Shown piece after piece: positions 630 to 51,857 of a DNA stretch of 64,000 bases (positions within the stretch are counted from its first letter, which is position 1; every line of letters starts with the position of its first letter). The stretch is from Actinomycetales bacterium (lineage in GTDB: Bacteria > Actinomycetota > Actinomycetes > S36-B12 > UBA5976), in assembly GCA_018969715.1 (NCBI GenBank), contig JAGWXT010000005.1, positions 13,263 through 77,262 of the forward strand, written 5' to 3'. The position numbers and the translations under genes are program-made. Under the pieces are notes generated by a model, which worked only from the letters and a program-made list of their open reading frames with translations, did no database searches and had not been told where the DNA came from.

Positions 630-645
630 CTGGTACCGTTTCCAG
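630..645. promoter_or_regulatory. candidate LacI-type operator, site 1 (CTGGTACCGTTTCCAG)
   Basis: 16-bp imperfect palindrome with a central CG, 6 of 8 arm pairs. Lies ~100 bp upstream of enolase gene 748. Same motif as sites at 17100, 18812, 37912 and 44699. Confidence 0.45.
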
Positions 646-747
646 CAACTGATCTGACGGCACCCGCGAGTCCCGCCCCGTCGCCCGCCCCGTCCCCCGC
701 CCCCATCCACACCACCGCCCGCCACCGGGCCCTACGCCAGAGATGAG

Positions 748-1872
748 TTGCCCGTGTCGGCCATTGAGCGCATCGAGACGATCCCGCTGCGGGTGCCACT
801 GAAGCACCTGTACAAGGGGTCGTACTACAAGATGCGCAACCGCTGCACGATCATCACCCGGATCCACACCAGTGATGGTCTGATCGGGGAGGCGTACAAC
901 GCCGACACCGATGAGGAGCAGCACGAGGTCCTGGCGATCATCCACGATGAGATCGCACCGTTGGTCACCGGTATGGACGTGCGACAGGTCGAGCGGATCT
1001 GGCACGCCATGCTGCCGGTGACCCTCGACCAGTTGCGTGATCGGGCGATCCCCATGCAGGCCATCGCCTGTGTCGACAGCGCCGTCTGGGATGCGGTCGG
1101 CAAGCATGCCGGCCAGCCACTGTGGCGACTGTGGGGGGGGTATCGGGATCGCATCCCGATGATCGGCATCGGCGGCTACTACGGCTCGAGTGAGGCCGAC
1201 CTTGAGCGGGAGCTCGGGTTCTTCCAGGGTGAGCACGGCATGGTGGGCATGAAGTTCAAGATCGGGGCGAAGCCGCCGGCCGAGGACGTTGCCCGGCTGC
1301 GACAGGCACGGGCCATTGTCGGCGATGACTTCGTCTTCGTTGTGGACGCGAATCAGGGGTACACGGTTGGGGAGGCGCTGGACTTTCTGGCGCGGATCGA
1401 CGGTGAGATCCCGCTGCGCTGGTTCGAGGAGCCCACGCGCTGGCACGCTGACTGGCGGGGACTGCGCGATGTGCGGATGCGGGGCAATGTCAACGTGGCC
1501 GCCGGTCAGAGCGAAATCTCACGGGTGGGTATGCGCGAACTCATGGTCAACGGGGCGATCGACGTGAGCAACTATGACGCCTCGTGGGGTGGTGGACCGA
1601 CCGAGTGGCGCCGCGTGGCGGCCCTCGCCAGCGCCTTCGAGGTCATGCTCGGTCACCATGAGGAGGCACAGGTGGCCTCCCACCTGCTGGCGTCGGTGCC
1701 CCACGGCACCTACGTCGAATCCTTCTCGCCGACCCGCGATCCGATCTTCTGGGGGTTGCTCTCGAACCGGCAGCCACTCATCAACGGTGAACTGGCCCTC
1801 CCCACCGACCCGGGTTTCGGGTGGGTGCTCAATGAGGACTTCATCGACCAATACCGGGTGGACCGCAGCTGA
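748..1872 (+). CDS. enolase-superfamily (mandelate racemase/muconate lactonizing enzyme) protein, acid-sugar dehydratase-like
   Basis: 374-aa ORF (TTG 748 or GTG 754 start). MR/MLE-type strings GMKFKIG, VVDANQGY, WFEEP, AAGQSE. Close paralog of 38023-39144. Confidence 0.8.
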   Translation: MPVSAIERIETIPLRVPLKHLYKGSYYKMRNRCTIITRIHTSDGLIGEAYNADTDEEQHEVLAIIHDEIAPLVTGMDVRQVERIWHAMLPVTLDQLRDRAIPMQAIACVDSAVWDAVGKHAGQPLWRLWGGYRDRIPMIGIGGYYGSSEADLERELGFFQGEHGMVGMKFKIGAKPPAEDVARLRQARAIVGDDFVFVVDANQGYTVGEALDFLARIDGEIPLRWFEEPTRWHADWRGLRDVRMRGNVNVAAGQSEISRVGMRELMVNGAIDVSNYDASWGGGPTEWRRVAALASAFEVMLGHHEEAQVASHLLASVPHGTYVESFSPTRDPIFWGLLSNRQPLINGELALPTDPGFGWVLNEDFIDQYRVDRS

Positions 1873-1972
1873 CCGCCGGTCAGCATCAGCGCCGCCGGAT
1901 TCCACCGGCGCCGTGCGCGCAGGATGGATACTCCGGCGAACGGCGCACCGTGCCAACTGAAGGGAGCCAGCT

Positions 1973-3100
1973 ATGAGCCGTATCGTCGCTGTTGAACCGA
2001 TTCCCGTCGCCTACCCCGAGCCCAATGACTTCGACGCCACGCGCTATCTCTGCCTGGTCAAGATCACAACCGATGACGGCGTGGTCGGCTGGGGAGAATC
2101 CATCACCCAGTTTCCGGAGGCGAATCCGGCGGTTGCCGCGCTGATCACGGGGCTCAGCGAGTTCGTCATCGGCCGCGACCCGCTCGACAACTACAGCATC
2201 TGGCGTGCCATCAAGGAGCGTGCTTGGTGGTACGGCTACCGGGGCGGACTCTTCTCCTATGCCTTGTCCGCAATTGACATCGCACTATGGGACATCAAGG
2301 GCAAGCTCCTCGGCCAGCCCGTGCTGACCCTGCTCGGCGGTCCGGTTCATGACCGGCTGCCCGCCATCGCCTCCTCGCATGCCCACTATGAGTCGCTGCC
2401 GGCCATGGCCGAGGAGGCAGTGGAGTGGCTCAGCACCGGACTGCAGGGAATGAAGGTGGGCTTCGGCAAGCGGGGGGATGCGCGGCTGGGCTATGAGCAC
2501 GACCGCGACGTTGCCTACGTTCGCCTGATGCGCGAGGCCATCGGCGCGGACAAGATGATCATGATCGATCTGGGCTATGCCATCAAGTGGGATGTCGCGA
2601 CCGCGGTCAAGCGAGTGCAGGCCTTCGATGAGTACAACATCGACTGGATCGAGGAACCACTCGGAGCGTGGGATCCGGAGGGCTATCGCACCCTGAAGGA
2701 CAAGACCCGCTGCCTGATCGCCTACGGCGAGCGCGAGTGGACGCTGGACGGTTTCGAGGCGGTCCTGGCGACCGGCACCTGCGATGTGGTCGGGGTGGAC
2801 CCGGGCCGGGCCGAGGGAATCACCGGATTCAAGAAGGTGACCGATCGGGTCGAGTTCTACCGTCGTCAGGCCAATGCCCATGCCTGGTCATCGGCAATCG
2901 TCACCGCCGCCAGCCTTGCGGTGAGCTTTGCAAGCTCGGCCTGCAAGCTGTTCGAGTTCAAGCCGCTGCGAAATCCGATGCAGCACGATCTGGTCACCCA
3001 GCCCTTTGAGCACGTCGACGGCTGGGTCTATCCGCCGCTGCAGGGTCCGGGCCTGGGAATCGAGATCCGCGAGGATGTCGTCGACCGCTACCGTCAGTAG
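1973..3100 (+). CDS. enolase-superfamily (MR/MLE) protein, second tandem member
   Basis: 375-aa ORF with an AAGGGAG RBS upstream. Strings GMKVGFG, MIDLGYA, IDWIEEP, AYGERE fit MR/MLE metal-ligand spacing. Confidence 0.8.
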   Translation: MSRIVAVEPIPVAYPEPNDFDATRYLCLVKITTDDGVVGWGESITQFPEANPAVAALITGLSEFVIGRDPLDNYSIWRAIKERAWWYGYRGGLFSYALSAIDIALWDIKGKLLGQPVLTLLGGPVHDRLPAIASSHAHYESLPAMAEEAVEWLSTGLQGMKVGFGKRGDARLGYEHDRDVAYVRLMREAIGADKMIMIDLGYAIKWDVATAVKRVQAFDEYNIDWIEEPLGAWDPEGYRTLKDKTRCLIAYGEREWTLDGFEAVLATGTCDVVGVDPGRAEGITGFKKVTDRVEFYRRQANAHAWSSAIVTAASLAVSFASSACKLFEFKPLRNPMQHDLVTQPFEHVDGWVYPPLQGPGLGIEIREDVVDRYRQ

Positions 3101-3107
3101 CGGATCG

Positions 3108-3986
3108 ATGCTCGGCCCTATCGGGCTGGACAGCTTCAGCGTCCACCGCTACTTCGGGGAGCACTCCCGCTGGGAACAGCCCTTAACAACCCGGTGGCAG
3201 ACGAGCGACTTCCTCGATCTGGTCGACCGGCTGGACTGTGCGGTCGCCTCATTGGAGACCGTGTACCTGGGCACCGACGACGAGGCCCTGTACGAGCAGT
3301 TGCAGGCATGGCAGGTGCGAACCGGACGGTCCTGCCTCTTCACCTGGGGCCACCCGGATGGCCTGCGGGGGGGCATGAATCCTGCCGCAGCAGATGACGC
3401 GCAGCGATACCTGCACCTGTCCCGGGAACTCGGCGCCACGGACATGCGCATCGTGTGCGGCAACCACCATCAGTGGGATGTCGACCCGGCGCAGCGCCGC
3501 CGGGTGCTGCGGCCACTGCTCGAACGGCTCGCCGATGTGGGAGGTGAAGCGGGAGTCCGGGTGTCAGTGGAGAACCATGCCGACTTCACCGTGACCGCTC
3601 TGGTGTCCTTCCTTGAGGAGATCGGCCACCCGAACCTTGGACTGTGCCTGGACACCGGCAACTGCCTGCGAACTGGTGAGCGCCCGGCAACGGTGCTGGC
3701 CGAGATTGACATGTCGCGCATCTTCATGGTGCAGGCCAAGGACGTCCGACTGCTGCCGGGTGCCGATCATCCGGTGGGATGGTGGCCGACGACCCGTTTC
3801 GGCACCGGGGATGTCGATATGGCCGGCTGCCTGCGCCGACTTGATGAGGGGGCGTTCACCGGCCCGCTGGTGATCGAGTTGAGCAACCTGTGGACGGGCC
3901 TGACGGAGATTGACGAGATCGAGTACGCGGTTGACTTCCTTCACCGGTGGCACCTGCCGGAGTCACCGAGGCACCCGGCTGGCTGA
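3108..3986 (+). CDS. sugar phosphate isomerase/epimerase, xylose-isomerase-like TIM-barrel protein
   Basis: Track ORF 2928-3986 trimmed to in-frame ATG 3108, just after the stop of the previous gene. Strings VSVENHADF and LCLDTGN are typical of the AP-endonuclease-2/xylose-isomerase fold. Confidence 0.65.
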   Translation: MLGPIGLDSFSVHRYFGEHSRWEQPLTTRWQTSDFLDLVDRLDCAVASLETVYLGTDDEALYEQLQAWQVRTGRSCLFTWGHPDGLRGGMNPAAADDAQRYLHLSRELGATDMRIVCGNHHQWDVDPAQRRRVLRPLLERLADVGGEAGVRVSVENHADFTVTALVSFLEEIGHPNLGLCLDTGNCLRTGERPATVLAEIDMSRIFMVQAKDVRLLPGADHPVGWWPTTRFGTGDVDMAGCLRRLDEGAFTGPLVIELSNLWTGLTEIDEIEYAVDFLHRWHLPESPRHPAG

Positions 3987-4106
3987 TCACGCCGATTGAC
4001 CCGCCTTCAGTGGCCCGGTACTGCTTGGATGGGGGCGCACGATCAAGGCCGCAGCAGTGGCACCAAGGCACCAGCATCTGACCACCAGTATTCGAGAGGA
4101 GTTGCC

Positions 4107-5174
4107 ATGACCGCAAAGAATCCGCGCATCGCCGTGGTGAGTGCCGGCTGGTGGGCGACCCAGTTCCACATCCCGTCCCTGCTCGACTACGACGGTGCTG
4201 ACCTGATTGCGATCGTCGATCAGGATGAGCAGAAGTTGTCAGCGGCGGCAACGCACTACGGGGTGACGACGACCTACGCCAGCCTCGCAGATCTCATCCG
4301 CACCGGTGACGTGGACGGGGTGGTGGTGGCGACCAACTCCGCAGCCCACTACGTCGTCGCCAAGGAGGCACTGGATGCTGGGCTGCACGTCATGGTCGAG
4401 AAGCCGATGGTCATCACCACCGCCGAAGCATGGGACCTGGTCGAGACGGCCCGGCGCAATGAGCGCCACCTCGTCGTCGGGCACACCTACCAGTTCGTTG
4501 AGTCGGCCGAGCTGCTTCGGCAGGTGGTCGCCAGTGGCGAGCTGGGCGAATTGGTGATGATGTCGGGTCTGTTCGCCTCCATGGTGGAGTCCTTCTACCG
4601 GGGTCAGCCGCAGGAGTACGCCGAGGTCTTCCAGTGGCCGGTAACCGGTCCCACCAGCCAGACGTACGCAACCGCGGCCTCCGCTGGCGGTGGCCAGGGC
4701 TATACGCAGGTCACCCACCCGATGGGGATGATGCTCCACATCACGGGCGCCCGGACGAGCCGGGTTGCGGCCTTCCTCAACTATCGCGATCTCGCCGTCG
4801 ACCTCGCCGACGCCATCTCCTACGAGTGCACCTCCGGTGCGGTCGGAACCATGGCATCCACGGGCAACATCCGCAAGAACGAGGCCCAGCAGCAGGAGTT
4901 GCGCTACTACTTCAGCCGCGGCTGGGCGACCCAGAACCTCCTCGATGCATCCGTGACCGTTCAGTTCGCCAGCGGCGAGTCCCGCCACTTCACCGCAAGT
5001 GATGTCTATCCAGCCCATGCGACGGCACGGCACCTCGCCGACCTCATCAGCGGCCGGGCAACGGAGAACCTTGCCTCTGGGGAGCATGGCGCGCGAGTGG
5101 TCGAGTTCCTTGACGCGGCCTATCGATCGGCGCACGCCGGACAGGTCGTGGACATCGATCTCAGCCGAGGCTGA
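4107..5174 (+). CDS. Gfo/Idh/MocA family oxidoreductase
   Basis: Track ORF 3996-5174 trimmed to ATG 4107 (GAGAGGA RBS). N-terminal Rossmann strand RIAVVSAGWWA and the EKP motif (HVMVEKPM). Confidence 0.75.
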   Translation: MTAKNPRIAVVSAGWWATQFHIPSLLDYDGADLIAIVDQDEQKLSAAATHYGVTTTYASLADLIRTGDVDGVVVATNSAAHYVVAKEALDAGLHVMVEKPMVITTAEAWDLVETARRNERHLVVGHTYQFVESAELLRQVVASGELGELVMMSGLFASMVESFYRGQPQEYAEVFQWPVTGPTSQTYATAASAGGGQGYTQVTHPMGMMLHITGARTSRVAAFLNYRDLAVDLADAISYECTSGAVGTMASTGNIRKNEAQQQELRYYFSRGWATQNLLDASVTVQFASGESRHFTASDVYPAHATARHLADLISGRATENLASGEHGARVVEFLDAAYRSAHAGQVVDIDLSRG

Positions 5175-6120
5175 GCGAGCCGCTGCGCAGCAGCAGGAAG
5201 ACGCCGCCACAGCAGACCAGGCCGGCCAGGACAATGCGGCGGCTCGGCCAACGCCGCAACCAGATCGACTCGATCGTGATGACCAGCAGCGGCGTCACCG
5301 CTAGCGTGCTCTGGACCGCGACCGGACTGCTGATCCGCACCGCGCTCAGGGCAAGCAGGAAGCCGAGGGTGATCAGCCCGGCGCGGCGGATCAGCACGGG
5401 CAAATCCCGCAGGTGCACCGCTCGCGGCCAGGCCAGCCCGAGGAAGACCAGGCCGGCGAGGGCGGTGCGCGAGACGTACACCTCGGGCAGGCTGACGCCG
5501 CGAACGAAGAGCGCGGCTGCGAGCACGATCAGCACCCCCTGACACACCGCGTAGCTCGTGAGCAGGCCGACGGCAGCCGGGGCGCGGATGCCGGCGAACT
5601 GTCCCCGCAGTGCGATGAGCACTCCCGCCACGAGGGTCAGCGCGCCCCCGGCCAGCCCCCAGGGGATGGCCACAGCGAGCAGCAGCGGTGTGGCCAGCAG
5701 CGTCACAACCGGGCTGAGGGCGGTCCCGATGCTCACCGCCGAGGCCGATCCGCGGTCGATCAGCCGGAAGAACGCCGAGCTCGCCACCACCATCAGCAGC
5801 ACGGAGCAGGCGTGCAGGGCGAGCACCGTCGGATCGAGCAGGTGCCAGGTGCTGCCACCCCCGAGTGAGGGAATGGCGAACAGGGGTGTGGCGAGGGCGG
5901 CGTTGATCAGGAACAGTGGGGCGATCACCTGCCGGGCCGGCAACCGGTTCACGAGGTCCTTGGTGAGGACGGTGCCCAGCGCCGTGGAGGTGCTGGCGGC
6001 CAGCGCCAGGGCTAGCCACACGGCGTGTCCACCCCCCCGGATGTGACCTCGCAGGAACCATCTGGCAACATTCCCGGAAACGTTAGCAACGGGGGCGGCT
6101 GGGGACACCTGGCCGCCCAT
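5161..6120 (-). CDS. EamA/DMT-family membrane transporter
   Basis: Track ORF 5161-6288 trimmed to ATG 6120 to avoid the divergent SBP gene. Highly hydrophobic with about 10 predicted TM stretches. The 3' end overlaps the convergent gene by 14 nt. Confidence 0.6.
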   Translation of the reverse strand: MGGQVSPAAPVANVSGNVARWFLRGHIRGGGHAVWLALALAASTSTALGTVLTKDLVNRLPARQVIAPLFLINAALATPLFAIPSLGGGSTWHLLDPTVLALHACSVLLMVVASSAFFRLIDRGSASAVSIGTALSPVVTLLATPLLLAVAIPWGLAGGALTLVAGVLIALRGQFAGIRAPAAVGLLTSYAVCQGVLIVLAAALFVRGVSLPEVYVSRTALAGLVFLGLAWPRAVHLRDLPVLIRRAGLITLGFLLALSAVRISSPVAVQSTLAVTPLLVITIESIWLRRWPSRRIVLAGLVCCGGVFLLLRSGSLSLG

Positions 6121-6172: not shown

Positions 6173-7162
6173 ATGCGCAAGACCAGACTGTCCATGGTCG
6201 CCGCAGCCGCGGCGGCGCTCGCCTTGGTGCTCGGGGTCCCCGCCGCCGCCAGTGCGGCACCGACCCAGGCCAATAACCAGATCACCATCGGCTACATCAA
6301 CCACATCGCCTCGATCCCCTACATCGCCATCGTGCAGAAGGGCATGGAGGCGGCTGCGAAGAAGGCTGGCGTCAAGCTCATCGTCTGCAACCCGGAGGGT
6401 GACGCGGCCAAGACGGTCGACTGCGCCGCCCAGTTCAAGACGCAGAACGTTGACGGCATCATCTCCTTCAACCCGGTGGAGGCCGCATCCGCTCGTGCCT
6501 GCGCCGCCGGTCCGCAGGTGCCGGTGATCGCCATCGACATCGTCCAGCAGCCATGTCAGACGGTCTTCTACGGCGCGAACAATGCAGCCGCCGGCTCGAT
6601 CGCCGGTCGCCTGCTCGGTCAGCATGCGAAGGCCAACTTCGACTGCAACATCGACGCCTTCATCTCGATGGAGGCACCGGTGGTCGGTGTGGTGAACGAG
6701 CAGCGCATGGGCGGGTTCAAGAAGGGCTATGAGGGCGTGTGCGGCCCGCTCGGCGACAAGTTGATCCGCGTCGACGGCAAGGGTGCAACCGACACCTCCA
6801 TCCAGCCCTGCCGGGACACCCTGACCCGACTGGCGGGCAAGAAGAAGATCTACGTCGGCGGGCTCAACGATGACATGGTCATCGGCTGCATCAAGGCAGC
6901 GGAGTCGGCTGGTCGGCTTGGCGACATCTACGGTGCCGGGCAGGGTGCAGACCCGACCTCGCTGCCGTACATGTGCGGCAAGACCAACTTCAAGAACTGG
7001 ATCGGCGATGCTGCGTACTTCCCTGAGAACTACGGAGCGGATGTCATCCCGACGATGATCTCGCTGATCGAGGGTCAGAAGCAGCCCAAGACGGTCAACG
7101 TCCGGCACCGTGCAGTCACGCCGGCGAACGTCAAGAGCATCTACCCGAACGCCTGCAAGTAG
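6173..7162 (+). CDS. sugar ABC transporter substrate-binding protein (CUT2/RbsB-like), secreted
   Basis: Signal peptide MRKTRLSMVAAAAAALALVLGVPAAASAAP. Periplasmic-binding-protein type I pattern. GAAGGAG RBS. First gene of an SBP-ATPase-permease set. Confidence 0.75.
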   Translation: MRKTRLSMVAAAAAALALVLGVPAAASAAPTQANNQITIGYINHIASIPYIAIVQKGMEAAAKKAGVKLIVCNPEGDAAKTVDCAAQFKTQNVDGIISFNPVEAASARACAAGPQVPVIAIDIVQQPCQTVFYGANNAAAGSIAGRLLGQHAKANFDCNIDAFISMEAPVVGVVNEQRMGGFKKGYEGVCGPLGDKLIRVDGKGATDTSIQPCRDTLTRLAGKKKIYVGGLNDDMVIGCIKAAESAGRLGDIYGAGQGADPTSLPYMCGKTNFKNWIGDAAYFPENYGADVIPTMISLIEGQKQPKTVNVRHRAVTPANVKSIYPNACK

Positions 7163-7179
7163 CCGGCTGAACGGAGCGG

Positions 7180-8682
7180 ATGCAGATGACCACGACAGCG
7201 CTCGCTGCGCGGGGCATCCGTAAGTCGTTCGGTGGCGTCGAGGTCCTCCACGGTGTGGACCTCGACGCCACCGGCGGCTCAATCCTCGCCCTGCTGGGTG
7301 AGAACGGTGCCGGCAAGTCAACCCTCATGAAGATCCTCTCCGGGGACTACACCCCCGATGCGGGGAGCATCGACATCGATGGCACGGTCGTGTCGGCCTT
7401 CGATCCCCGCACCGCTCGTGCGGCGGGGATCCGCATGATCTACCAGGAGTTCCAGGATGCGCCGACCCTGAGCGTGGCGGAGAACATCTCACTTGGCCGG
7501 CTGCCGGCTCGTGGCGGCGTTGTCAACGGCCGCGCCATGCGGGAACGGGCGCGCAGTGTGCTCTCCCTGATGGGTGTCGAGCTCGACCTCGATGCCCCCG
7601 TCGGCGGACTGCGCGTGGGTGAGCGGCAGATCGTCGAGATCGCGCGTGCCCTTTCCGATGACGCGCGGGTGCTGATCCTCGACGAGCCGACGGCTGCCCT
7701 CTCCCAGCAGGAGGTGGATCGGCTCTTCACCTACCTTCGTGATCTGCGTCGTCAGGACATCGCCCTGATCTACATCACCCATCGTCTCGATGAGGTCACC
7801 GAGATCGCCGATCGGGTGCAGGTTCTGCGAGACGGTGATGTGGCCGCGGTGGGACCGGTGGTCGAGTTCGATCGAGGCGCCATGGTGACGGCGATGATCG
7901 GGCGCACGGCATCCTCGGTTGAGCGCCCACTGCCGGTGACGATCCCCGAGGGCACGGCACCGGCGGTGGAATTCCGCTCGGTCAGCGTCCCTCGCGCCTA
8001 TTCCGATGTGAGCCTGATGGTCCGCCCCGGTGAGGTCGTCGCCGTATACGGCAAACTCGGATCGGGTTCGGGGGAGCTCGTCGAGACGCTGTTCGGGCTC
8101 CACACCCCAAGTCAGGGGGAGATCCGCGTCACCGAGCGGCCCTTCCGTCCCAAGGGCCCCGCAGAGGCGATTGCCGGTGGGGTGGGGCTGGTCCCGCCCG
8201 ACCGGAAGCGGGAGGCCATCTTCGCGGTGCGGTCGGTGGCGGAGAACATCGCCGTTGCCTCCTGGCGCCGCCTCGCTGATGCGGGCCTGCTGATCAGGCG
8301 GGCAACCGAGGGACGGGCGTTCGCCCACTGGTACGCAACCCTGGGAATCCGATCCCGCAACGATCCACGACAGGAGATGGGAACCCTCTCCGGTGGCAAC
8401 CAGCAGAAGGTGGTCATCGCGCGCTGGCTGGAGAGAGGCACCCCGATCCTCGCGATGATCGAGCCGACGCGTGGTGTCGATGTCGGTGCCCGCGCGGAGA
8501 TCTACCGGTCCGTGCGGGAGCTTGCCGGCCAGGGCATGGCGATTCTGGTGTCGACCTCCGACTACGAGGAGGTTGTGCAACTGGCTGACCGGGCCCTCGT
8601 CATGTCGCGGGGCCGCATCGTGACTGAACTGACCGACGACCACATCACAACCGGCGCATTGCTCACAGCAGCAGGAGGCTGA
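7180..8682 (+). CDS. sugar ABC transporter ATP-binding protein (fused double NBD, CUT2)
   Basis: 500 aa. Walker A GENGAGKST, second-half signature LSGGNQQKV, RbsA/MglA-like duplicated NBD layout. Confidence 0.9.
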   Translation: MQMTTTALAARGIRKSFGGVEVLHGVDLDATGGSILALLGENGAGKSTLMKILSGDYTPDAGSIDIDGTVVSAFDPRTARAAGIRMIYQEFQDAPTLSVAENISLGRLPARGGVVNGRAMRERARSVLSLMGVELDLDAPVGGLRVGERQIVEIARALSDDARVLILDEPTAALSQQEVDRLFTYLRDLRRQDIALIYITHRLDEVTEIADRVQVLRDGDVAAVGPVVEFDRGAMVTAMIGRTASSVERPLPVTIPEGTAPAVEFRSVSVPRAYSDVSLMVRPGEVVAVYGKLGSGSGELVETLFGLHTPSQGEIRVTERPFRPKGPAEAIAGGVGLVPPDRKREAIFAVRSVAENIAVASWRRLADAGLLIRRATEGRAFAHWYATLGIRSRNDPRQEMGTLSGGNQQKVVIARWLERGTPILAMIEPTRGVDVGARAEIYRSVRELAGQGMAILVSTSDYEEVVQLADRALVMSRGRIVTELTDDHITTGALLTAAGG

Positions 8683-8684
8683 CC

Positions 8685-9767: not shown

Positions 9768-9848
9768 TCGCACCGAGGGCCGGGCTGGTGCCCGCACCGA
9801 GGCACCTGCACTAGTTCACGCACCTGCACCAGTGGAGGAGGGATCTGC

Positions 9849-13163: not shown

Positions 13164-13197
13164 CGTTGAGCCTCCTTCTACTGGATGAGGATGGGCG

Positions 13198-14694: not shown

Positions 14695-14697
14695 CGG

Positions 14698-37868: not shown

Positions 37869-37911
37869 GCCGGGAGTCTAGGAGCGCACAGGTCGACCCG
37901 TCCGCTAGGGT

Positions 37912-41312: not shown

Positions 41313-41364
41313 GTCCCCGCGGCGCGATGTGCATCCGCGGGCCGATTGCACAAGGAGCGACACG

Positions 41365-41604: not shown

Positions 41605-41688
41605 CCACGGCGACTGACGACGGCCCGCGACGTGCCCGGCCTCGACGGTGCGTACACCGGTGAGACCGGGTCCCGGTCCTTTGACCCA

Positions 41689-43746: not shown

Positions 43747-43764
43747 TGACCACCGCTGATGAAT
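43726..43764. repeat. 3 x 13-bp tandem repeat ACCGCTGATGAMY spanning a stop / start junction
   Basis: Copies at 43726-43738, 43739-51 and 43752-64. Contains the TGA stop of the 704-aa ORF (43744-46). Places TGATGA in all three frames. Confidence 0.9.
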
Positions 43765-43790
43765 GGACGATGAGGGAGAGGAGCGGGCAG

Positions 43791-44646: not shown

Positions 44647-44664
44647 GGGTCACAATTCGATAAC
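44647..44664. promoter_or_regulatory. second copy of the 18-nt box GGGTCACAATTCGATAAC
   Basis: Exact 18/18 match to 26387-26404. Both lie in intergenic DNA 106-134 nt upstream of the first gene of an ABC-transporter operon. AT-rich relative to its surroundings. Confidence 0.5.
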
Positions 44665-44698: not shown

Positions 44699-44714
44699 GC
44701 GGTAACGTTTCCCG
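44699..44714. promoter_or_regulatory. candidate LacI-type operator, site 3 (GCGGTAACGTTTCCCG)
   Basis: The core GGTAACGTTTCC has 5 of 6 palindromic arm pairs around the central CG. Lies ~87 nt upstream of permease start 44799. Confidence 0.4.
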
Positions 44715-44798
44715 AACCTGTGCTGACAGACGACAGCCAGTGCCGCCGCAGGCGGCGGGAGCATGCGTGAACGAGGCCAGCCGAGGACGGGAGTCGAG

Positions 44799-45803
44799 AT
44801 GAGCACCAGCAAGGCAGCTTCGCGCCGCATCCGGATGCCCGATGAACTCGGTGTCTTCATCGCGCTGCTCGTGCTCATCGGGATCATCGGTGCGCTGCAG
44901 CCGAAGTTCCTCAACATCAACACCTTCCTCAATGTGATGGCGAATAACTCCATCCTTGGGATGCTTGCCCTGGGCACGGTCTTCCTACTCGCCATGCGCG
45001 AGATCGACCTCTCCTTCGGGATGATCCTCAACCTCTCCGGCGTGCTCGCGGGGCTCAGCATGATTGCGGGGGTGCCAGTTGAACTGGGCATCCTGATCGC
45101 GCTCGTGGCGGGTCTGACGATGGGCACCCTCAATGGCTATCTGAGTGTGCAGTTTCGGCTTCCGCTCATCATCATCACGCTCGGCACGGCGTCGATCTAT
45201 CAGGGCACCTCGTTGATCGTCAACAACAAGGGTTCGGTCCTGCCGCCGCCGGAGGTGAAGGCGCACTGGTTCTTCCAGTTCATGGGAGGGCTGACCGACT
45301 TCCCGGTGCCGCCGATCGTCATCGTCTTCCTCGTGCTCGCGGTGGTGCTGCACTTCGTCCTCCACCGCTCGCGGTTCGGCTACCGGATCCTCGCCATCGG
45401 CAGCAACCCCGACTCTGCCCGTCTCGCGGGGATCAATGTCGATGGCTCACGCATCCAGGTCGCCGCGCTGATGGGCGTGATTGCAGGATTCGGGGGTGCC
45501 ATGTTCCTCGGATTCCGTGGCGCTATCGACCCGACCACCGGGTACCAGTTACTGCTGCCGGTGATCGCGGCAGCGATCATCGGTGGCACCCCCCTCTCGG
45601 GGGGTTCCGGCACCATCATCGGTGCTGTCCTCGGAACGCTGGTCGTCGGCGTCATCGCAACCGGTGTCGTCTTCCTCGGCATCGATGCCACCTGGAGCAC
45701 CTTCGTCACCGGCGTTGTCATCGTCGTGGCGGTCGGCATCGATCAGCTGGTGCGAGTCCAGCGCCGCAACCGGGCGGCTGTGGCGTCGGCCGGTGGCCAG
45801 TAG
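44799..45803 (+). CDS. sugar ABC transporter permease (RbsC-like)
   Basis: Trimmed to ATG 44799 (ACGGGAG RBS). Multi-TM. GGTPLSGGSGTIIGA string. Confidence 0.85.
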   Translation: MSTSKAASRRIRMPDELGVFIALLVLIGIIGALQPKFLNINTFLNVMANNSILGMLALGTVFLLAMREIDLSFGMILNLSGVLAGLSMIAGVPVELGILIALVAGLTMGTLNGYLSVQFRLPLIIITLGTASIYQGTSLIVNNKGSVLPPPEVKAHWFFQFMGGLTDFPVPPIVIVFLVLAVVLHFVLHRSRFGYRILAIGSNPDSARLAGINVDGSRIQVAALMGVIAGFGGAMFLGFRGAIDPTTGYQLLLPVIAAAIIGGTPLSGGSGTIIGAVLGTLVVGVIATGVVFLGIDATWSTFVTGVVIVVAVGIDQLVRVQRRNRAAVASAGGQ

Positions 45804-45915
45804 TGCCGGACTCCCACCCCAATGAGCTTCCCGGCCGCGGCCGGGTCGACCCTCCGATCGCAGCCGCGATGGAGGGTGCCGCTAACAGCACCACACCTAG
45901 GCAAGGAGGACAGCA

Positions 45916-47070
45916 GTGCGCAAGCGCGTAGGAATCGCCGCCGTTGCGGCGGCGTTTGCGGTGACCGCAGCAGCATGTGGTGGCACCGCCGACACGGCAA
46001 CTGAGGCACCTGCCGAAGAGACACCGGCCGAGGCACCCGCCGAGGAGGCACCCGCTGAGGCACCCGCCGACGACATCGAGATCGGTTTCGTCACCCACGT
46101 CGTGGGCAACCCGTTCATCCAGCAGATCATCGACGCCGCACTGCAGGCGGGCGAGGACCTTGGAGTCACGGTCACTGTTGCCGGGCCGACCGGTGGCGAG
46201 GCGGATGCCCAGCTCGCCGCAGTGGAGAACCTCGTCGCCGCGGGCGTCGATGGGATCGCGACCTCGGTGCCGTCCAGCTCCATGGACAATGCCCTCAACG
46301 CCATCATCGACAGCGGTATCCCGGTGGCGACCTTCAACCTGCTCTCGCCGGCCGTGAATGCGCCCTACGTTGGGGAGAAGTCGGTTGAGTCCGGCCGCAT
46401 CCTCGGTGCGCGCATCGTCGAGCTGCTCGGTGGTGAGCAGCAGGCCAAGGGCACGGTCGTCGTCGGCATCTGCTTCCCCGGGTTCCCCGTTCTGGAGAAC
46501 CGGGCGAAGGGTGTTCAGGAGGCGCTGGCCAAGGCACCCGGAATCAAGGTGGAGGGCCCCTTCGACGTCAAGGTTGACGCCGCGGAGAACTACTCCAAGT
46601 GGGAGGGCCTCTACCAGGCTAACCCGGACGTTGCCGCACTCGTTGGACTGTGCGCACCGGACGTGGAGAGCCTCGGCCAGCTGAAGGCCAAGAACCCCAA
46701 GGCGAAGTTCATCGCTGGGGGCTACGACCTCACCCCGGGCAACGTTGCGGCGATCGCCAACGACACCGCTCAGGTGAGCCTCGGCCAGACGCCGTTCATG
46801 CAGGGCTACCTGCCGGTGTACATGCTGGTGCAGGCGATCCGGGACGGCGTGAAGCTGGAGCCCGGCTTCGTCGACGCCGGCACTGAGATCGCAACCTCCA
46901 ATCCGCTGCAGGTGATCCAGCCATATGGGCTGCCGCAGCTGACCTTCGACGAGCTGGCGGTCATCGCTGGCGACCCGAAGAAGTCCCGCGAGTTCTACCA
47001 GCCGCTGGTTGACGGCATCATCAAGAACTGGCAGGCAGAGGTGCAGCCGATCGCGAACGAGTCCTCCTGA
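45916..47070 (+). CDS. sugar ABC transporter substrate-binding lipoprotein
   Basis: GTG start with an AAGGAGGA RBS. Lipobox AVTAAAC|GG, linker TEAPAEETPAEAPAEEAPAEAPADD, then a PBP type I body. Confidence 0.8.
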   Translation: MRKRVGIAAVAAAFAVTAAACGGTADTATEAPAEETPAEAPAEEAPAEAPADDIEIGFVTHVVGNPFIQQIIDAALQAGEDLGVTVTVAGPTGGEADAQLAAVENLVAAGVDGIATSVPSSSMDNALNAIIDSGIPVATFNLLSPAVNAPYVGEKSVESGRILGARIVELLGGEQQAKGTVVVGICFPGFPVLENRAKGVQEALAKAPGIKVEGPFDVKVDAAENYSKWEGLYQANPDVAALVGLCAPDVESLGQLKAKNPKAKFIAGGYDLTPGNVAAIANDTAQVSLGQTPFMQGYLPVYMLVQAIRDGVKLEPGFVDAGTEIATSNPLQVIQPYGLPQLTFDELAVIAGDPKKSREFYQPLVDGIIKNWQAEVQPIANESS

Positions 47071-47095
47071 CCTCGTCCGCGCAATAGGCCGGTGT

Positions 47096-47222
47096 GCTGT
47101 GTGGGGGACCCGCGAATGCGGGCCCCCCACACAGCCTGGATCAAGTGTCGGGGGACCCGCGAATGCGGGCCCCCACACAGCCTGGAACAGGTGTCGGGGG
47201 ACCCGCGAATGCGGGCCCCCTA
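47096..47222 (+). repeat. ~2.7 tandem copies (46-47 bp) of a REP-like GC hairpin element between the SBP and ATPase genes
   Basis: Copy 1 (47096-47135) is GCTGTGTGGGGGACCCGC-gaat-GCGGGCCCCCCACACAGC, an 18-bp stem with 1 mismatch. The core GGGGGACCCGCGAATGCGGGCCCCC recurs at 47103, 47150 and 47196. Confidence 0.85.
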
Positions 47223-47259
47223 ACTCGGCATCCCGCCGGGTTCGGAGAGGATTGGACGG

Positions 47260-48801
47260 GTGAACATGACCGCTGAGGCTGCGCCCCCCGCATTGCGGGC
47301 GGTCGGCGTCGACAAGCGCTACGGCGGTGTCCGTGCCCTGCGGAGCCTCGCGATCGAGGTGCGGGCCGGGACGATCCATGCCGTTGTCGGGGAGAACGGT
47401 GCGGGCAAGTCCACGCTCATGAACATCGTCGCCGGTGTCGTCACCCCCGACTCCGGCACCGTCGAGGTCGACGGTCGGCCCTTCGCCCCCCGCGGTGTGG
47501 CCGATGCGCGAGCGGCGGGTATCGGAATCGTCCATCAGGAGTTGCGACTCTTCCCGGATCGGTCGGTGCTGGCCAATCTCTTCGTCAGTGATCTGCCCAC
47601 CCGCCGCGGATTGGTGGACCTCCGGGGCATGGCTGCTCGGTCGGCTGAGATTCGCGCCCAGCTGGGCCTGGACGTGGATCCACTGACGCCCGTCGGGGCG
47701 TTGTCACTGTCGGATCGCCAGTTGGTTGAGCTCGCCCGGGTGCTGCTGGAGCGGCCGCGGCTGCTGATCCTCGACGAGCCGACCTCGGCCCTGAACGCCA
47801 CCGAGACCGCGCGGCTGGCGGCGATCATCCGGGCACTGCCCGCCGGCGGCACGACCGTGCTCTATGTCTCCCATCGGCTTGAGGAGGTCTTCGACCTCGC
47901 CGATGAGATCACCGTCATGCGCGACGGCGAGCGGGTGCTCACCGGTGCCACTGCGGACCTCAGCATCCCCAAGGTGGTCAAGGCGATCGTGGGCGATGAG
48001 GACTTCGAGGCGCCCAGCCGAGCGGCTCGAGGCGATCTGGCTGATGCGGCACCCACCGGCACCCTGCAGGTGACGGGGCTGGCCAGCCGTGGGCAGGTCC
48101 GCGATGTCTCCTTCACCGTGTCAGCCGGTCAGATCATCGGGGTGGCCGGGCTGATCGGATCGGGGGCGGATGAACTGCTGAACCTGCTCTTCGGCGCCGT
48201 TCCCCTGCGGGCCGGCACCGCGGTGTACCCGGATGGGCGAGGGGTCCCGCGATCCCCCACCGAAGCCGCCCGCCGGGGGATCGCCCTGGTGCCGGCTGAC
48301 CGGCGGCATTCCGGGCTGATGCTGGAGCGCTCGGTCAGCGACAACCTCGCACTGGTCACCGTCGGCGCCCTCGCCCAGGGCCCCTTCCTGCTGCAGCCAC
48401 GGCGGTTGCGAGCCGCTGCTGCTGGGATCATCAGCCGGTTCGGGATCAAGGCCGACCGTCCCGACACGATTGTGGGGACGCTCTCCGGGGGGAACCAGCA
48501 GAAGGTGGTGGTCGCCAAGTGGCTGGTCACCGAGCCGCGGATCGTCCTCCTCGATGACCCAACCCGGGGAGTTGACATCGGAGCGAAGGGCGAGATCTTC
48601 GCCCTGATCCGCACCCTGGCCGATGAGGGGCGTACGGTGCTGTTCCGCTCCACCGAACTCGCCGAGCTGGTCGTGCTCTGTGACACCATTCTCGTGCTCC
48701 GCGATGGCCGCGTGGGCGAGGTGCTGAGCGGAGTGACCGAGTCCGAGCTCCTCGCGGCGGTGAACACCGCGTCGGTGCCAGCATCCGCAGGTGCCGCCTG
48801 A
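47260..48801 (+). CDS. sugar ABC transporter ATP-binding protein (fused double NBD, CUT2)
   Basis: GTG 47260 or ATG 47266. Walker A GENGAGKST and signature LSGGNQQKVVVA. Confidence 0.9.
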   Translation: MNMTAEAAPPALRAVGVDKRYGGVRALRSLAIEVRAGTIHAVVGENGAGKSTLMNIVAGVVTPDSGTVEVDGRPFAPRGVADARAAGIGIVHQELRLFPDRSVLANLFVSDLPTRRGLVDLRGMAARSAEIRAQLGLDVDPLTPVGALSLSDRQLVELARVLLERPRLLILDEPTSALNATETARLAAIIRALPAGGTTVLYVSHRLEEVFDLADEITVMRDGERVLTGATADLSIPKVVKAIVGDEDFEAPSRAARGDLADAAPTGTLQVTGLASRGQVRDVSFTVSAGQIIGVAGLIGSGADELLNLLFGAVPLRAGTAVYPDGRGVPRSPTEAARRGIALVPADRRHSGLMLERSVSDNLALVTVGALAQGPFLLQPRRLRAAAAGIISRFGIKADRPDTIVGTLSGGNQQKVVVAKWLVTEPRIVLLDDPTRGVDIGAKGEIFALIRTLADEGRTVLFRSTELAELVVLCDTILVLRDGRVGEVLSGVTESELLAAVNTASVPASAGAA

Positions 48802-48850
48802 GCCCCCTACCTGCCCGCCCCGCACACAGCAACCGAAGGGAGTCGATGAC

Positions 48851-49177
48851 ATGATCCGCCGCGCCTTCACCATGCGCCTCAAGCCCGGTGGCTTGGCCGA
48901 GTACCGGCGCCACCACGACGAGATCTGGGCCGAGCTCGTCGCCGAGATCGAGCAGCAGGGGATCGCCCAGATCACCATCTTCGAGAACGACCCCGTCCTC
49001 GTGCTCTACTCGGAGATCCGCGATCCGGATGCCTGGGATCGCCTCTGGCACTCAGCGGTCCACGACCGTTGGTCGGAGCTGATGAACCCACTCATGGAGT
49101 TCAACAGCGACGGCATCGTCGACTCCTCGGAGTTGCGCGAGGTATTCCACTTGGAGACCTCGCCCACCGGATCATGA
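48851..49177 (+). CDS. L-rhamnose-mutarotase family protein (second copy)
   Basis: Trimmed to ATG 48851 (GAAGGGAG RBS). 108 aa: MIRRAFTMRLKPGGLAEYRRHHDEIWAELVAEIEQQG, same family pattern as 25931-26245. Confidence 0.75.
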   Translation: MIRRAFTMRLKPGGLAEYRRHHDEIWAELVAEIEQQGIAQITIFENDPVLVLYSEIRDPDAWDRLWHSAVHDRWSELMNPLMEFNSDGIVDSSELREVFHLETSPTGS

Positions 49178-50001
49178 TCGGCCCGGTCGACCTCACCGGA
49201 CGGATCGGCCTAGTCACCGGCGCCAGTCGCGGTCTGGGCCGGGCGATCGCTGAGGCGATGGCGGGCTCTGGTGCAACGGTGGTTGCCGTTGCGCGCACCG
49301 AAGTGGCGGGTGCGCCCGGTGGCGACCACGGGCCGGGGCGGATCATCCCGATGACCTGCGATGTGGCCGATGTCGATGCGGTGATGGCGCTCGGTGAGCG
49401 GGTGGCTGCCGATGTGGGGCCGGTGTCGATGCTTGTCAATGCGGCCGGCGTCTTCGGCCAGATCGAGTTGATCGCGCGCACCGATCCCCATGCGTGGGTG
49501 CGCACGATCATGGTGGATGCCGTGGCGTCCTACCTCACGGTGCGCGCCTTCCTGCCGGGAATGCTCGACGCGGGATGGGGTCGGATCGTCAACCTCACAT
49601 CGGCCGCATCCCTGCACCCACCGGGGCCGCTGAACAGCGCCTACGGCACCGCCAAGGTGGCTCTCAACCAGTTCACCCGTCACCTCGCAGCGGAGATCGC
49701 CGGCACCGGGGTGACCGCCAACGTCATCCACCCCGGTGATGTGCAGACCGCAATGTGGGCCGATATCCGCGATCAGGTGACCGCCCTGGGGCCGGTTGCC
49801 GCCGACTACCAGGCCTGGGTGGATTGGGTGGCCGAGACCGGCGGTGACCCCCCGCAGAAGGCCGTCGACCTGGTGCTGCGCCTGGTCTCGGATCAGGACG
49901 GCGTACCGAACGGCGAGTTCTGCTGGATCGATGATCCACTGCAGGCCCCCATCGCCAGTTGGGATCCGCCCAGTGGCGCCCGTCCCTGGCTGGACGAATG
50001 A
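49174..50001 (+). CDS. SDR family oxidoreductase
   Basis: Trimmed to ATG 49174 (ATGA overlap). TGASRGLG and YGTAKVA motifs. Confidence 0.8.
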   Translation: MIGPVDLTGRIGLVTGASRGLGRAIAEAMAGSGATVVAVARTEVAGAPGGDHGPGRIIPMTCDVADVDAVMALGERVAADVGPVSMLVNAAGVFGQIELIARTDPHAWVRTIMVDAVASYLTVRAFLPGMLDAGWGRIVNLTSAASLHPPGPLNSAYGTAKVALNQFTRHLAAEIAGTGVTANVIHPGDVQTAMWADIRDQVTALGPVAADYQAWVDWVAETGGDPPQKAVDLVLRLVSDQDGVPNGEFCWIDDPLQAPIASWDPPSGARPWLDE

Positions 50002-50732
50002 CGGGAGTCCTCGCCGGTCGGGTGGCGGTTGTGACGGGAGCCTCGCGGGGGATCGGGTACGGGATTGCACGGCGGCTGGCCGCGGAGGGGGCGGCGGTCG
50101 GTTTGATCGCCCGATCGCCGGAGCGGTTGGCGGCGGTCGCCGATCGGTTTGACAGCTCACGACTGGCGGTGGCGGCCGCTGATGTGGGGGACTGGTCGCA
50201 GGTGCAGGCTGCGGTCGCGAAGCTGACATCGGCCCTTGGGCCGATCGATCTGGCCGTGGCCAACGCTGGGATGGGGATCATCGGCCCCGTTGCCGAGGCG
50301 GATCCGCAGACCTGGGCGGCGATGATGCAGGTGAACTATCTCGGCACCGCCCACCTGATCCGCGCGGTGCTGCCTGACATGCTCGCACGCGGCCACGGGG
50401 ACATCAGTGCGATCGTGTCGGCCGGCGGGACCCGCGGCTACCCGAACTGGTCGGGCTACTGTGCGAGCAAGCACGCGGTCATGGGCTTTCTGGAATGCCT
50501 GTCACAGGAGGTCACCAGCAAGGGGGTCCGCGTGGGCGCCCTCTGCCCAGGTGGCGTCGACACCCCCTTCTGGGACGACCTCAATGAGGACCTCTACACC
50601 GCAGGCAGCAGTGAGCGCGAGCGCCTGATGAGCCCGGACGATGTCGCAGCGATGCTGCTCGCGCAGGTGACGCTGCCCCGTGGCCTGCTGCTGAAGCAGG
50701 CCCTCTTCTTTCCCGTGAATGAGTGGCACTGA
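49998..50732 (+). CDS. SDR family oxidoreductase
   Basis: Trimmed to ATG 49998 (ATGA overlap). TGASRGIG and YCASKHA motifs. Confidence 0.85.
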   Translation: MTGVLAGRVAVVTGASRGIGYGIARRLAAEGAAVGLIARSPERLAAVADRFDSSRLAVAAADVGDWSQVQAAVAKLTSALGPIDLAVANAGMGIIGPVAEADPQTWAAMMQVNYLGTAHLIRAVLPDMLARGHGDISAIVSAGGTRGYPNWSGYCASKHAVMGFLECLSQEVTSKGVRVGALCPGGVDTPFWDDLNEDLYTAGSSERERLMSPDDVAAMLLAQVTLPRGLLLKQALFFPVNEWH

Positions 50733-50762
50733 GATGCCGATCGGTCGACCACCTGCCGTCGA

Positions 50763-51857
50763 GTGCCGGGCGGTGAACTGATCGCCGTGAACCGGCTCGA
50801 GCAGTCAACGGGGGATGTGGGCGAGCAGGCTCCGGAGGGTCCGGCAAGCATTCGCGACGTTGCCGCACGGGCCGGGGTTGCCCTATCAAGCGTGTCCCGG
50901 GTGCTGTCGGGTCACCCGGACGTCTCCGACCGGATGCGCACCCGCGTCCAGCAGGCGGCGGATGAGCTCGGCTATGAACCCGATCTGCTCGCTCGCGCCC
51001 TGCGGCGCGGTTCGACGATGACCGTGGGCTTCCTGCTGCGCGATATCTCCAACCCGCTGTTCGCGGCGATTGCCAGCGACTGTGAGCGCAGACTGCGCGA
51101 TCGTGGCTACTCGATGCTGCTGGCGAACTCCGACGGTGAGGTTGCGATCGAGGAGGAGAACCTCGGACTGCTGCGGCGACGGCGGATTGACGGCCTGATC
51201 GCCTCACTTGAATCCGAGACCGCCGACACCACCCGTCGGGCACTGTCCGCGTACACCGCTCCGATCGTCCTGCTGGATCGGGAGGTAGCGGGTCTGGTCA
51301 CCGCGGGTGCGGTTCTCAATGACCACTTCACGGGCGTGAGTGCGGCCGCCCATGACCTCATCGCGAAGGGGCACCGCCGGATCGCCCTGGTCACCGGCGC
51401 AACCACCGTCCGCTCCACACGCGAGCGACGTCGGGCAATCGAGGCGGCCCACCGCCGAGCGGGACTGCCGATGGATCCCTCGCTCATGAGCCACACCACC
51501 TTCAACACCGGCGACTCCGAGCGCGCGGTCGCACGCCTGCTGGCACAACCGGATCCGCCGACGGCGCTCGTGGCCGGCGGCATCGGACCGAGTATCGGCA
51601 CTCTCACCGCACTGCGGGACGCTGGACGCCAGCCGGGTCGCGATATCGCCATGGTGGTGCTCGATGAGTGGCCACTGCTGGAGATCACGATGCCGCATCT
51701 GGGATCGGTGGCGCGCGATGCGGCGGCCACCGGCAAGGCTGCCGCGGATGTCCTCATCGAGATGATGGCCGGGGGTGAACCGCGTACGGTCGTCACCGAC
51801 ACCCGCTATGACCCGCGCGGCTCGGTGATCCCGGTTGAGCGCTGCCGGGCCCGGTGA
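50763..51857 (+). CDS. LacI-family transcriptional regulator
   Basis: HTH IRDVAARAGVALSSVSRVLSG...GYEPDLLARALRRG followed by a PBP-type effector domain. The true start may be an internal GTG (50790 or 50817). This is the only regulator gene in the ~53-kb catabolic region. Confidence 0.85.
   Translation: MPGGELIAVNRLEQSTGDVGEQAPEGPASIRDVAARAGVALSSVSRVLSGHPDVSDRMRTRVQQAADELGYEPDLLARALRRGSTMTVGFLLRDISNPLFAAIASDCERRLRDRGYSMLLANSDGEVAIEEENLGLLRRRRIDGLIASLESETADTTRRALSAYTAPIVLLDREVAGLVTAGAVLNDHFTGVSAAAHDLIAKGHRRIALVTGATTVRSTRERRRAIEAAHRRAGLPMDPSLMSHTTFNTGDSERAVARLLAQPDPPTALVAGGIGPSIGTLTALRDAGRQPGRDIAMVVLDEWPLLEITMPHLGSVARDAAATGKAAADVLIEMMAGGEPRTVVTDTRYDPRGSVIPVERCRAR

Follow-up and report, generated by a model that had tools for sequence, protein, structure and literature searches.

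How far does a single repressor reach when one palindrome recurs ahead of several neighbouring catabolic operons, with only one regulator gene in their midst? The question is raised by a 64,000-nucleotide stretch of DNA from an Actinomycetales bacterium (GenBank assembly GCA_018969715.1, contig JAGWXT010000005.1, positions 13,263 to 77,262), hereafter the window, in which a gene for a LacI-family regulator (50763-51857, plus strand; PF00356 plus PF00532/PF13377) lies among operons for sugar uptake and oxidation. An earlier, sequence-only reading proposed that a LacI-type motif in five promoter regions joins these operons into one regulon. Our analysis supports its central idea of one LacI clade, one operator and about 38 genes in nine or ten transcription units. 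The window holds six such sites, and it is likely, judging from the sequence and its conservation, that they are the operators of a LacI-family repressor encoded at 50763-51857.

Six intergenic palindromes in the window

The shared element is a 16-bp palindrome, approximately CTGGAAACGTTTCCAG, and the central CG is present in all six window sites, each of them 16 bp long. A scan of the whole 64-kb window with CTGGAAACGTTTCCAG, allowing up to three mismatches, returned three matches against 0.10 expected, and a looser 14-mer returned seven against 0.65, exposing an extra site near 6075. Under a symmetrised matrix, the six top scores of the window belong to the five sites already proposed and to 6074-6089; all six are intergenic and none falls in coding DNA, which bears out the placement that the sequence-only reading had given its five. 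The 16 remaining intergenic regions score -0.6 or lower. When the intergenic DNA (3.3 kb, GC 0.67) was shuffled 1000 times with dinucleotides preserved, matches of at least 14 bits averaged 0.008, compared with the six observed. A k-mer count without any prior motif yields the same signal as the matrix scan: CGTTTCC occurs in five intergenic regions and three times in 60.7 kb of coding DNA, and AACGTTTCC in three intergenic regions and nowhere in coding DNA. Around the five sites first proposed the flanking DNA is unrelated, so that the shared part is limited to the 16 bp.

All five of those sequences are found at the coordinates quoted for them; the fourth had been given as the 15-mer 37912-37926, whose proper 16-bp register is 37911-37926, and the count of five promoter regions rises to six with 6074-6089. 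The distances claimed to the first genes (40-110 bp) agree with the measured ones, 39-108 bp from site to start codon, and thus lie within the -140 to -30 zone that holds more than 75% of LacI-family sites (PMC4052901). Both enolase paralogs had been said to stand about 100 bp from their sites, and we measured 102 and 96 bp. Two further candidates were rejected: 1991-2006 (14.7 bits) is coding, falling in the N-terminus of the second dehydratase, which has a clear ribosome-binding site, and 11187-11202 lies inside a VOC gene. A listing of AT-containing intergenic near-palindromes was non-discriminating, recovering operators 1 and 2 among unrelated matches.

Operator 1 (630-645, CTGGTACCGTTTCCAG, 22.7 bits) is located 102 bp 5' of enolase-superfamily gene A and 64 bp 5' of a divergent partial gene at 2-565. 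It contains a -10-like hexamer, TACCGT, preceded at 18 nt by TTGCTT (TTGCTT-18-TACCGT). The promoters of the orthologues in Phytohabitans, Dactylosporangium and Asanoa carry CCGGTACCGTTTCCAG, near-identical to operator 1, in the arrangement TTGACC-18-TACCGT with the hexamer again within CCGGTACCGTTTCCAG. Since the hexamer lies inside the operator and this arrangement is kept in the orthologous promoters, operator 1 probably overlaps the promoter -10 element. The conserved block was read by eye, as a MAFFT alignment upstream of this gene (MR_MLE_A) misplaced the window because the leader of enolase paralog A has some 50 bp of additional C-rich sequence, which the orthologues lack. Operator 2 (17100-17115, CTGGATACGATTCCAG, 20.2 bits) lies 39 bp 5' of the minus-strand gene for the lipoprotein SBP_2, a substrate-binding protein (SBP), and a candidate promoter on the same strand, TTGACT-18-AAAAAT (17155-17126), ends 10 bp ahead of it.

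Operator 3 (18812-18827, CTGGTAACGTTTCCCA, 19.5 bits), in a divergent intergenic region, is 108 bp from a 371-aa gene on the plus strand and 83 bp from an arabinose-isomerase-like gene on the minus strand. Operator 4 (37911-37926, TCTGAATCGTTTCCAG, 14.6 bits), also in a divergent region and with an imperfect left half that is one base short, stands 96 bp from enolase paralog B (plus strand) and 42 bp from a CoA-transferase gene (minus strand). Its variant form, nnAGAATCGTTTCCAG, recurs elsewhere upstream of E1-beta genes (locus L010 at 981, L040 at 377 and L069 at 910) and is also found in Poriferisocius-like loci. Operator 6 (6074-6089, CCGGAAACGTTAGCAA, 17.6 bits), the site missed by the sequence-only reading, is 83 bp 5' of SBP_1 and about 52 bp 5' of the likely GTG start, at 6021, of a divergent EamA-family transporter gene (5161 to about 6021, minus strand). 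Homology begins near residue 76-103 of the long open reading frame (ORF), and 6021-6120 appears non-coding because its third-position GC is about 0.67. Operator 6 adds the SBP-ATPase-permease-GFO-VOC operon to the regulon, and probably the EamA exporter gene as well, which makes the latter a probable target. A weak partner, CTGGCAACATTCCCGG (6062-6077, 10.2 bits), overlaps it 12 bp upstream, and among the window operators only this one has a partner at a 12-bp offset. Operator 5 (44699-44714, GCGGTAACGTTTCCCG, 14.2 bits) lies upstream of the permease that heads the LacI operon, at 48 bp if translation begins at ATG 44763 or 85 bp if it begins at ATG 44800.

Inspection of the window promoters gave no convincing call at operators other than 1 and 2, and a simple sigma-70 scan of 37.7-53.4 kb found no promoter-like site. 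A general rule in which a TAnCGT hexamer within the operator serves as the -10 element was also rejected: among 58 non-redundant unidirectional sites, the TA half faces the gene in 11 cases and points away in eight, giving no bias. Promoter overlap is claimed for operators 1 and 2 alone because no orientation bias was found; for these two an overlap is reasonably well supported.

Conservation alongside the regulator clade

For comparison we assembled 80 loci (1.35 Mb), chosen solely by the presence of a LacI homologue at 41-57% identity, one genome per species, with up to 10 kb of flank. According to their record titles, they come from Micromonosporaceae, Pseudonocardia, Streptosporangiaceae, Euzebyaceae, Nanopelagicaceae (acI), Ilumatobacteraceae and other Acidimicrobiia, Baekduia and a few Chloroflexota. 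A matrix built from only the five window sites first proposed, applied at a threshold of 16 bits, detected 165 sites, compared with 2.0 in dinucleotide shuffles. Outside mapped coding sequence lie 163 of them; two of the 165 lie inside, which, together with none of six in the window, speaks against the objection, raised with the original proposal, that the motif might be equally dense in coding DNA. For most sites (138/165), a homologue of a window gene begins no more than 350 bp downstream. Of the 80 loci, 70 have at least one site scoring 16 bits or above; in 36 a site immediately precedes the LacI gene, and a further 19 have one ahead of a co-directional gene run that reaches LacI, giving 55/80 in total.

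The motif thus co-occurs with the regulator clade, and comparison of the 80 loci shows it kept upstream of orthologues in other genera, other classes and a second phylum, as the original proposal would have it. Upstream sites were found for MR_MLE_A (25/35 homologues) and MR_MLE_B (25/30), and also for SBP_1 (13/20), SDR_3 (12/21), the 476-aa protein (7/14), SDR_2 (13/27), amidohydrolase (15/35), the CoA-transferase (9/21), GFO_2 (16/42) and the isomerase-like gene (8/25). By tblastn, the regulator gene is repeatedly flanked by homologues of window genes, among them MR_MLE_A (78-86% identity), MR_MLE_B, MR_MLE_2, E1 beta/alpha, the lipoyl protein and the CoA-transferase, as well as by amidohydrolase_2, GFO, SDRs, the isomerase-like gene, the 371-aa, 476-aa and 596-aa proteins, RhaM, VOC, EamA and the SBP_1 transporter. 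In the small loci of the freshwater Nanopelagicaceae type (acI), the sole site separates the LacI gene from an MR_MLE_B gene that runs divergently.

The consensus of 92 distinct external sites is C-T-G-G-(A/t)-A-(A/t)-C-G-(T/a)-T-(T/a)-C-C-A-G, with the central CG in 77 of the 92. A matrix made from these external sites ranks the same six window sites first, a check that is partly circular. Overlapping operator pairs, which share 4 bp and have a centre-to-centre distance of 12 bp, occur in 11 distinct cases (loci L001, L002, L004, L005, L010, L013, L045, L054 and L078), and no other spacing below 80 bp was seen more than twice; two LacI-type dimers could hardly sit on both members of such a pair simultaneously. 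A side observation concerns the comparative set itself, in which contigs of about 50% GC (L003, L015, L017, L018, L019, L021, L023, L025 and L029), titled, for example, Bifidobacterium breve, Streptomyces griseus or Candidatus Fonsibacter, look mis-binned or mislabelled. Mislabelling is suspected because their gene order and operator match those of Nanopelagicaceae (acI) loci.

The regulator and competing explanations

The regulator has the architecture of its family. Its helix-turn-helix (HTH) matches PF00356 over residues 29-74 (E 1.7e-15; 57 bits against a 27-bit cut-off), its C-terminal domain resembles type-I periplasmic-binding proteins (PF00532, 76.9 bits; PF13377, 76.5 bits), and it aligns over its full length to structures of RbsR, PurR and CcpA, the closest solved relative being RbsR 9ny7 (E 1e-39). 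The hinge, LARALR, aligns with LARSLK of RbsR and VARSLK of PurR, and the hinge leucine is matched. In PurR (Leu54) and LacI (Leu56) this leucine inserts at the central CpG step of the operator. The start codon is uncertain; GTG occurs in frame at 50763, 50787 and 50817. The protein falls under the cut-off of all 18 NCBIfam equivalog models (best RbsR, 159.4 against 531 bits) and by these cut-offs is not placeable in the RbsR, PurR, CytR, CcpA, GalR/GalS, Cra or UriR groups; its nearest named homologue, from Pseudonocardia, is 61% identical. Among its top homologues the HTH segment IRDVAxRAGVALSSVSRVLS is nearly invariant, matching the invariance of the operator motif, which supports this protein as the binder. 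Pfam scans of all large ORFs found it to be the only transcription-factor gene in 748-57215, in agreement with the claim that it is the sole regulator gene of the 53-kb region; the next regulator, GlnR (60487-61194), lies outside.

We favour, as a working model, a repressor dimer that would bind each 16-bp palindrome, CTGG(A/T)A(A/T)CG(T/A)T(T/A)CCAG, lying in or just downstream of a promoter. Such binding would block transcription of nine or ten units (about 38 genes), and the repressed genes would include those for three ABC (ATP-binding cassette) sugar importers, an EamA transporter, three enolase-superfamily acid-sugar dehydratases, lactonases, GFO, SDR and Zn dehydrogenases, a thiamine pyrophosphate (TPP)-dependent E1 with its lipoyl module, and a CoA-transferase. 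Direct contact between LacI and these operators is predicted, as is a repressing rather than an activating role. A sugar or pathway intermediate bound to the C-terminal periplasmic-binding-protein-like domain would free the repressor; the presence of three importers and three dehydratases points either to several substrates or to an inducer that is a common downstream intermediate. One effector or more may be involved.

A number of points weigh against this model. The visible part of the genome is 64 kb, and a paralogue with the same HTH could lie elsewhere; one metagenome-assembled genome (MAG), MFD02840.bin.1.278, has two homologue-bearing contigs (L036 and L037). No operator adjoins the LacI gene in the window, and three very stable hairpins and a terminator-like hairpin lie between operator 5 and that gene. 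Operators 4 and 5 are the weakest, at 14-15 bits, and a -10 element is not generally embedded in the operator. Seven of the 80 loci are without a site. Finally, loci picked for their regulator also hold the target genes, so that a motif linked to the regulator and one linked to the targets are not fully separable.

Autoregulation had been attributed to "site 3", a slip for the fifth listed site (44699), which belongs to the third catabolic locus. Autoregulation in this genome would need read-through over 6 kb from operator 5 and is uncertain because of the hairpins in between. A 46-bp unit repeated 2.6 times at 47099-47220, between the SBP and ATPase genes, forms three GC-rich hairpins (GGGGGACCCGCGAATGCGGGCCCCC), and the 189-nt spacer that holds the array (47071-47259) folds at -120.5 kcal/mol (z -7.2). 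This array could act as an attenuator within the operon, or it could stabilise the mRNA. The terminator-like hairpin (50682-50702; eight pairs, six of them G-C, followed by the T-rich tail CTCTTCTTTC) lies inside the 3' end of an SDR gene, about 60 bp ahead of the LacI start codon, and could limit expression of the regulator.

Could the sites be genuine LacI-type operators that another LacI protein, encoded outside the window, binds, with the protein at 50763-51857 controlling its own operon or something else? We regard this as quite unlikely. The AAnCGnTT core is common to LacI-family operators (PMC4052901), and the small visible part of the genome, the lack of an operator adjoining the regulator gene and the MAG with two homologue-bearing loci would all suit a paralogue. 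Against it, 70 of 80 loci selected purely by this regulator clade carry the motif; in 55 of 80 the position of a site fits control of the regulator gene; the smallest loci contain just the regulator, a divergent target gene and a single site; and HTH and motif are both invariant across the clade. An unlikely explanation too, if one with slightly more in its favour, is that the operators form no single unit: 1, 2, 3 and 6 would be repressed while 4 and 5 are barely occupied, or several effectors or regulators would define sub-regulons. The two score groups (17.6-22.7 and 14.2-14.6 bits) point this way, as do the three ABC importers with three different dehydratases, which suggest several substrates, and an unrelated exact 16-mer common to two transporter promoters, which hints at a second control element. 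However, the imperfect variant of operator 4, nnAGAATCGTTTCCAG, is kept in other genera, which argues for function, and all six sites lie far above the other intergenic regions (-0.6 or lower).

The statistics of the window and the conservation of the sites exclude a chance origin. To chance similarity, or a dispersed repeat without regulatory role, we accordingly give next to no credence: the shortness of the motif is all that speaks for it, and against it stand the enrichment in the window and across genomes, the unrelated flanks and the conservation upstream of orthologues in other lineages. Control of the six sites by the LacI protein encoded among them remains the reading we prefer.

Predicted target genes and relation to known LacI systems

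Coding frames in the window, which is about 67% GC, were assigned by third-position GC, annotation used Pfam and NCBIfam, and operon boundaries were inferred from strand and gaps alone; no window enzyme reaches an equivalog cut-off. A search with polyphosphate kinase puts the organism close to uncultured actinomycetes of Nanopelagicales or Frankiales type, the best named hits being 70-72% identical. From left to right, the predicted targets begin with a plus-strand operon at 748-5174 that encodes MR/MLE dehydratases A and 2, a xylose-isomerase-like TIM barrel protein and a GFO oxidoreductase. Operator 6 precedes the plus-strand operon at 6173-11356 (SBP_1, ABC ATPase, permease, GFO oxidoreductase 2 and a VOC/glyoxalase-like gene). 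The minus-strand operon at 11373-17060 comprises SBP_2, permease, ATPase and a 596-aa ApnL-like protein; next to it on the same strand is a single gene for an arabinose-isomerase-like or sulfoquinovose-isomerase-like protein (17274-18728). The plus-strand operon at 18936-25934 encodes the 371-aa protein, which is Cys-rich, a Zn-dependent alcohol dehydrogenase (ADH), two SDRs, a fuconolactonase-like amidohydrolase_2, a third SDR and an M81/MlrC-like protein. Further right lie a minus-strand operon at 35268-37868 (family III CoA-transferase and the 476-aa protein) and two plus-strand operons: 38023-44585, with MR/MLE dehydratase B, E1 beta, E1 alpha, a lipoyl-domain protein, a 704-aa ApnL-like protein and an SDR, and 44763-53125, with permease, SBP_4, ATPase, a RhaM-type mutarotase, two SDRs, LacI and a PrpD-like protein. 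A possible tenth target is the minus-strand partial gene at 2-565, divergent from operator 1, which runs off the left end of the window and has no Pfam match; it has a third-position GC of 0.80 and probably codes for a protein, with no homologue in the 80 loci. The regulon may thus extend past the left end of the window.

The mixed-strand cluster at 25931-35246, with RhaM on the minus strand followed on the plus strand by an ATPase, two permeases, an SBP, an SDR, an ADH, a further SDR and a HAD protein, has no operator. With its rhaM, third ABC transporter, SDR/ADH and HAD genes, this 25.9-35.2 kb cluster reaches a best score of only -3.8. With the sixth site, the putative regulon amounts to about 38 genes in nine units, against the roughly 40 first suggested.

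Several of the enzymes are known only by family. Enolase paralogs A and B are 50% identical; A (748-1872) shares 78-86% identity with its homologues in distant actinobacterial lineages and matches PDB 3msy, 4h83 and 3no1 (E about 1e-131), entries whose only annotation is mandelate racemase/muconate lactonizing enzyme (MR/MLE). The 596-aa (11373-13163, minus strand) and 704-aa (41632-43746, plus strand) proteins had been described as two unknown paralogs linked by the motif. The link stands, but they are not wholly unknown: sharing 33% identity, they are distant ApnL homologues that match NF049900 (D-apionate lactonase ApnL) with E values of 1e-46 and 2e-30, scores that fall far short of the equivalog cut-off, and probably represent a new subfamily of sugar lactonases. 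At 39301-41604, genes for E1 beta and E1 alpha of the pyruvate/acetoin-dehydrogenase type precede a small one for a free-standing lipoyl domain; Pfam matches in the window include no E2 catalytic domain and no E3. The trio accompanies the regulator in many other genomes.

Other sequence elements were noted in passing. An exact 16-mer, GTCACAATTCGATAAC, occurs at 26390-26405 and 44649-44664, which is 106 and 99 bp 5' of the first genes of two ABC-transporter operons; its flanks are otherwise unrelated, shuffles gave a mean of 0.09 matches, and it may act as a second regulatory element or be a promoter component common to both. A tandem array of a 13-bp unit, GGGTCACAAGCCC, in about 4.7-5.4 copies (26319-26396), ends in the first 16-mer copy; the array occupies the divergent promoter region between rhaM and the third ABC transporter, in the one sugar cluster of the region without a LacI-type operator. 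Intergenic regions and leaders often carry short tandem duplications, with periods of 12-33 bp (493-560, 672-703, 37970-38005, 39241-39278 and 43722-43762), and the leader of enolase paralog B holds an exact 18-bp repeat in two copies. At the edge of the operator-less cluster, the ORF fragment 33984-34259 (DQDQPMLLAPDLRDWLPGDHPARWVDDLV) was considered as the N-terminus of an insertion sequence (IS) transposase; Pfam gave no match and the idea is unsupported.

The mechanism itself is textbook, a LacI repressor on a CG-centred palindrome, and leaves our understanding of regulation unchanged. The interest lies in the size of the regulon, the breadth of lineages and the delimitation of an uncharacterised pathway. 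The motif ties together about 38 genes, plus their homologues across several actinobacterial classes, including genes with no assigned function, which encode the 371-aa and 476-aa proteins, two ApnL-like proteins, the M81/MlrC-like and PrpD-like proteins, the E1/lipoyl module and three enolase-superfamily dehydratases. In practice, this delimits a set of genes and names a candidate sensor with which to find out what sugars the organisms consume, with culturable hosts of the same regulon in Phytohabitans, Dactylosporangium, Asanoa and Pseudonocardia acaciae.

More tentatively, the regulator clade could be the master switch of a widespread, undescribed oxidative network for sugar and sugar-acid catabolism. 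This network might span Actinomycetota, including the abundant freshwater Nanopelagicaceae (acI) and sponge-associated Acidimicrobiia, as well as some Chloroflexota, and its unusual steps might comprise the TPP-dependent E1 alpha/beta with its separate lipoyl protein, ApnL-like lactonases, a family III CoA-transferase and three uncharacterised enolase-superfamily dehydratases; we hold this picture to be possible rather than probable. If it is true, the conserved operator offers a guilt-by-association map for assigning enzyme functions. Our literature searches found no published description of the regulator clade or motif, a weak negative since motif logos in figures are unsearchable. Searches with the motif string returned just primers and unrelated text, nothing was found on a pathway combining these enzyme families, and a search on apionate gave no relevant regulon.

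Among characterized systems, E. coli RbsR (PDB 9ny7, also the top NCBIfam model) shares the LacI HTH, hinge and type-I periplasmic-binding-protein fold. The RbsR operator is a CG-centred palindrome with a AAACGTTT core, and the operators of Cra/FruR and PurR are likewise CG-centred even palindromes with this core. The window regulator differs from RbsR in its recognition helix (SSVSRV rather than STVSHV) and in the outer half-site of its predicted operator, CTGG/CCAG; moreover, RbsR controls one operon, whereas nine or ten units are predicted here. It scores far below the cut-offs for Cra (112 against 385 bits) and PurR (134 against 501 bits), and all targets seen for the window regulator lie in one 53-kb block devoted to peripheral sugar catabolism rather than central metabolism.

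LacI-family regulons are mostly small, with 93% holding no more than 20 genes and 69% consisting of one or two operons (PMC4052901), so that the window regulon is unusually large. Ravcheev et al. (2014) call a LacI regulon 'global' when it has more than 15 genes in at least seven operons (PMC4052901); the predicted one, with about 38 genes, nine units and six operator regions, exceeds this size and would be among the largest for the family outside CcpA, PurR and Cra. LacI-family operators are defined as palindromes of even length, 16-22 bp, with a central CG (PMC4052901). The local sugar regulons of the RegPrecise type, which were reconstructed computationally from evidence of a like kind, share with the window a 16-bp even palindrome with central CG, sites 30-140 bp upstream, near-absence from coding DNA and frequent autoregulation (PMC4052901).

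Another parallel is the LacI-type RhaR of Actinomycetales, which has a palindromic operator, governs the uptake and breakdown of deoxy-sugars and has a predicted L-rhamnose regulon (Rodionova et al. 2013, PMC3870299). Like RhaR, the window protein is an actinomycete LacI regulator with a palindromic operator, and its predicted regulon includes a RhaM-type mutarotase. The actinomycete rha clusters described there encode a phosphorylative route that includes the RhaEW aldolase-dehydrogenase fusion (PMC3870299); unlike them, the window genes show neither a sugar kinase nor a class II aldolase domain or fusion among their Pfam matches. The two regulators are compared here by target genes and published description. 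Taken together, the putative repressor and its candidate operators display every feature of LacI/GalR repressor-operator systems that can be tested from sequence.

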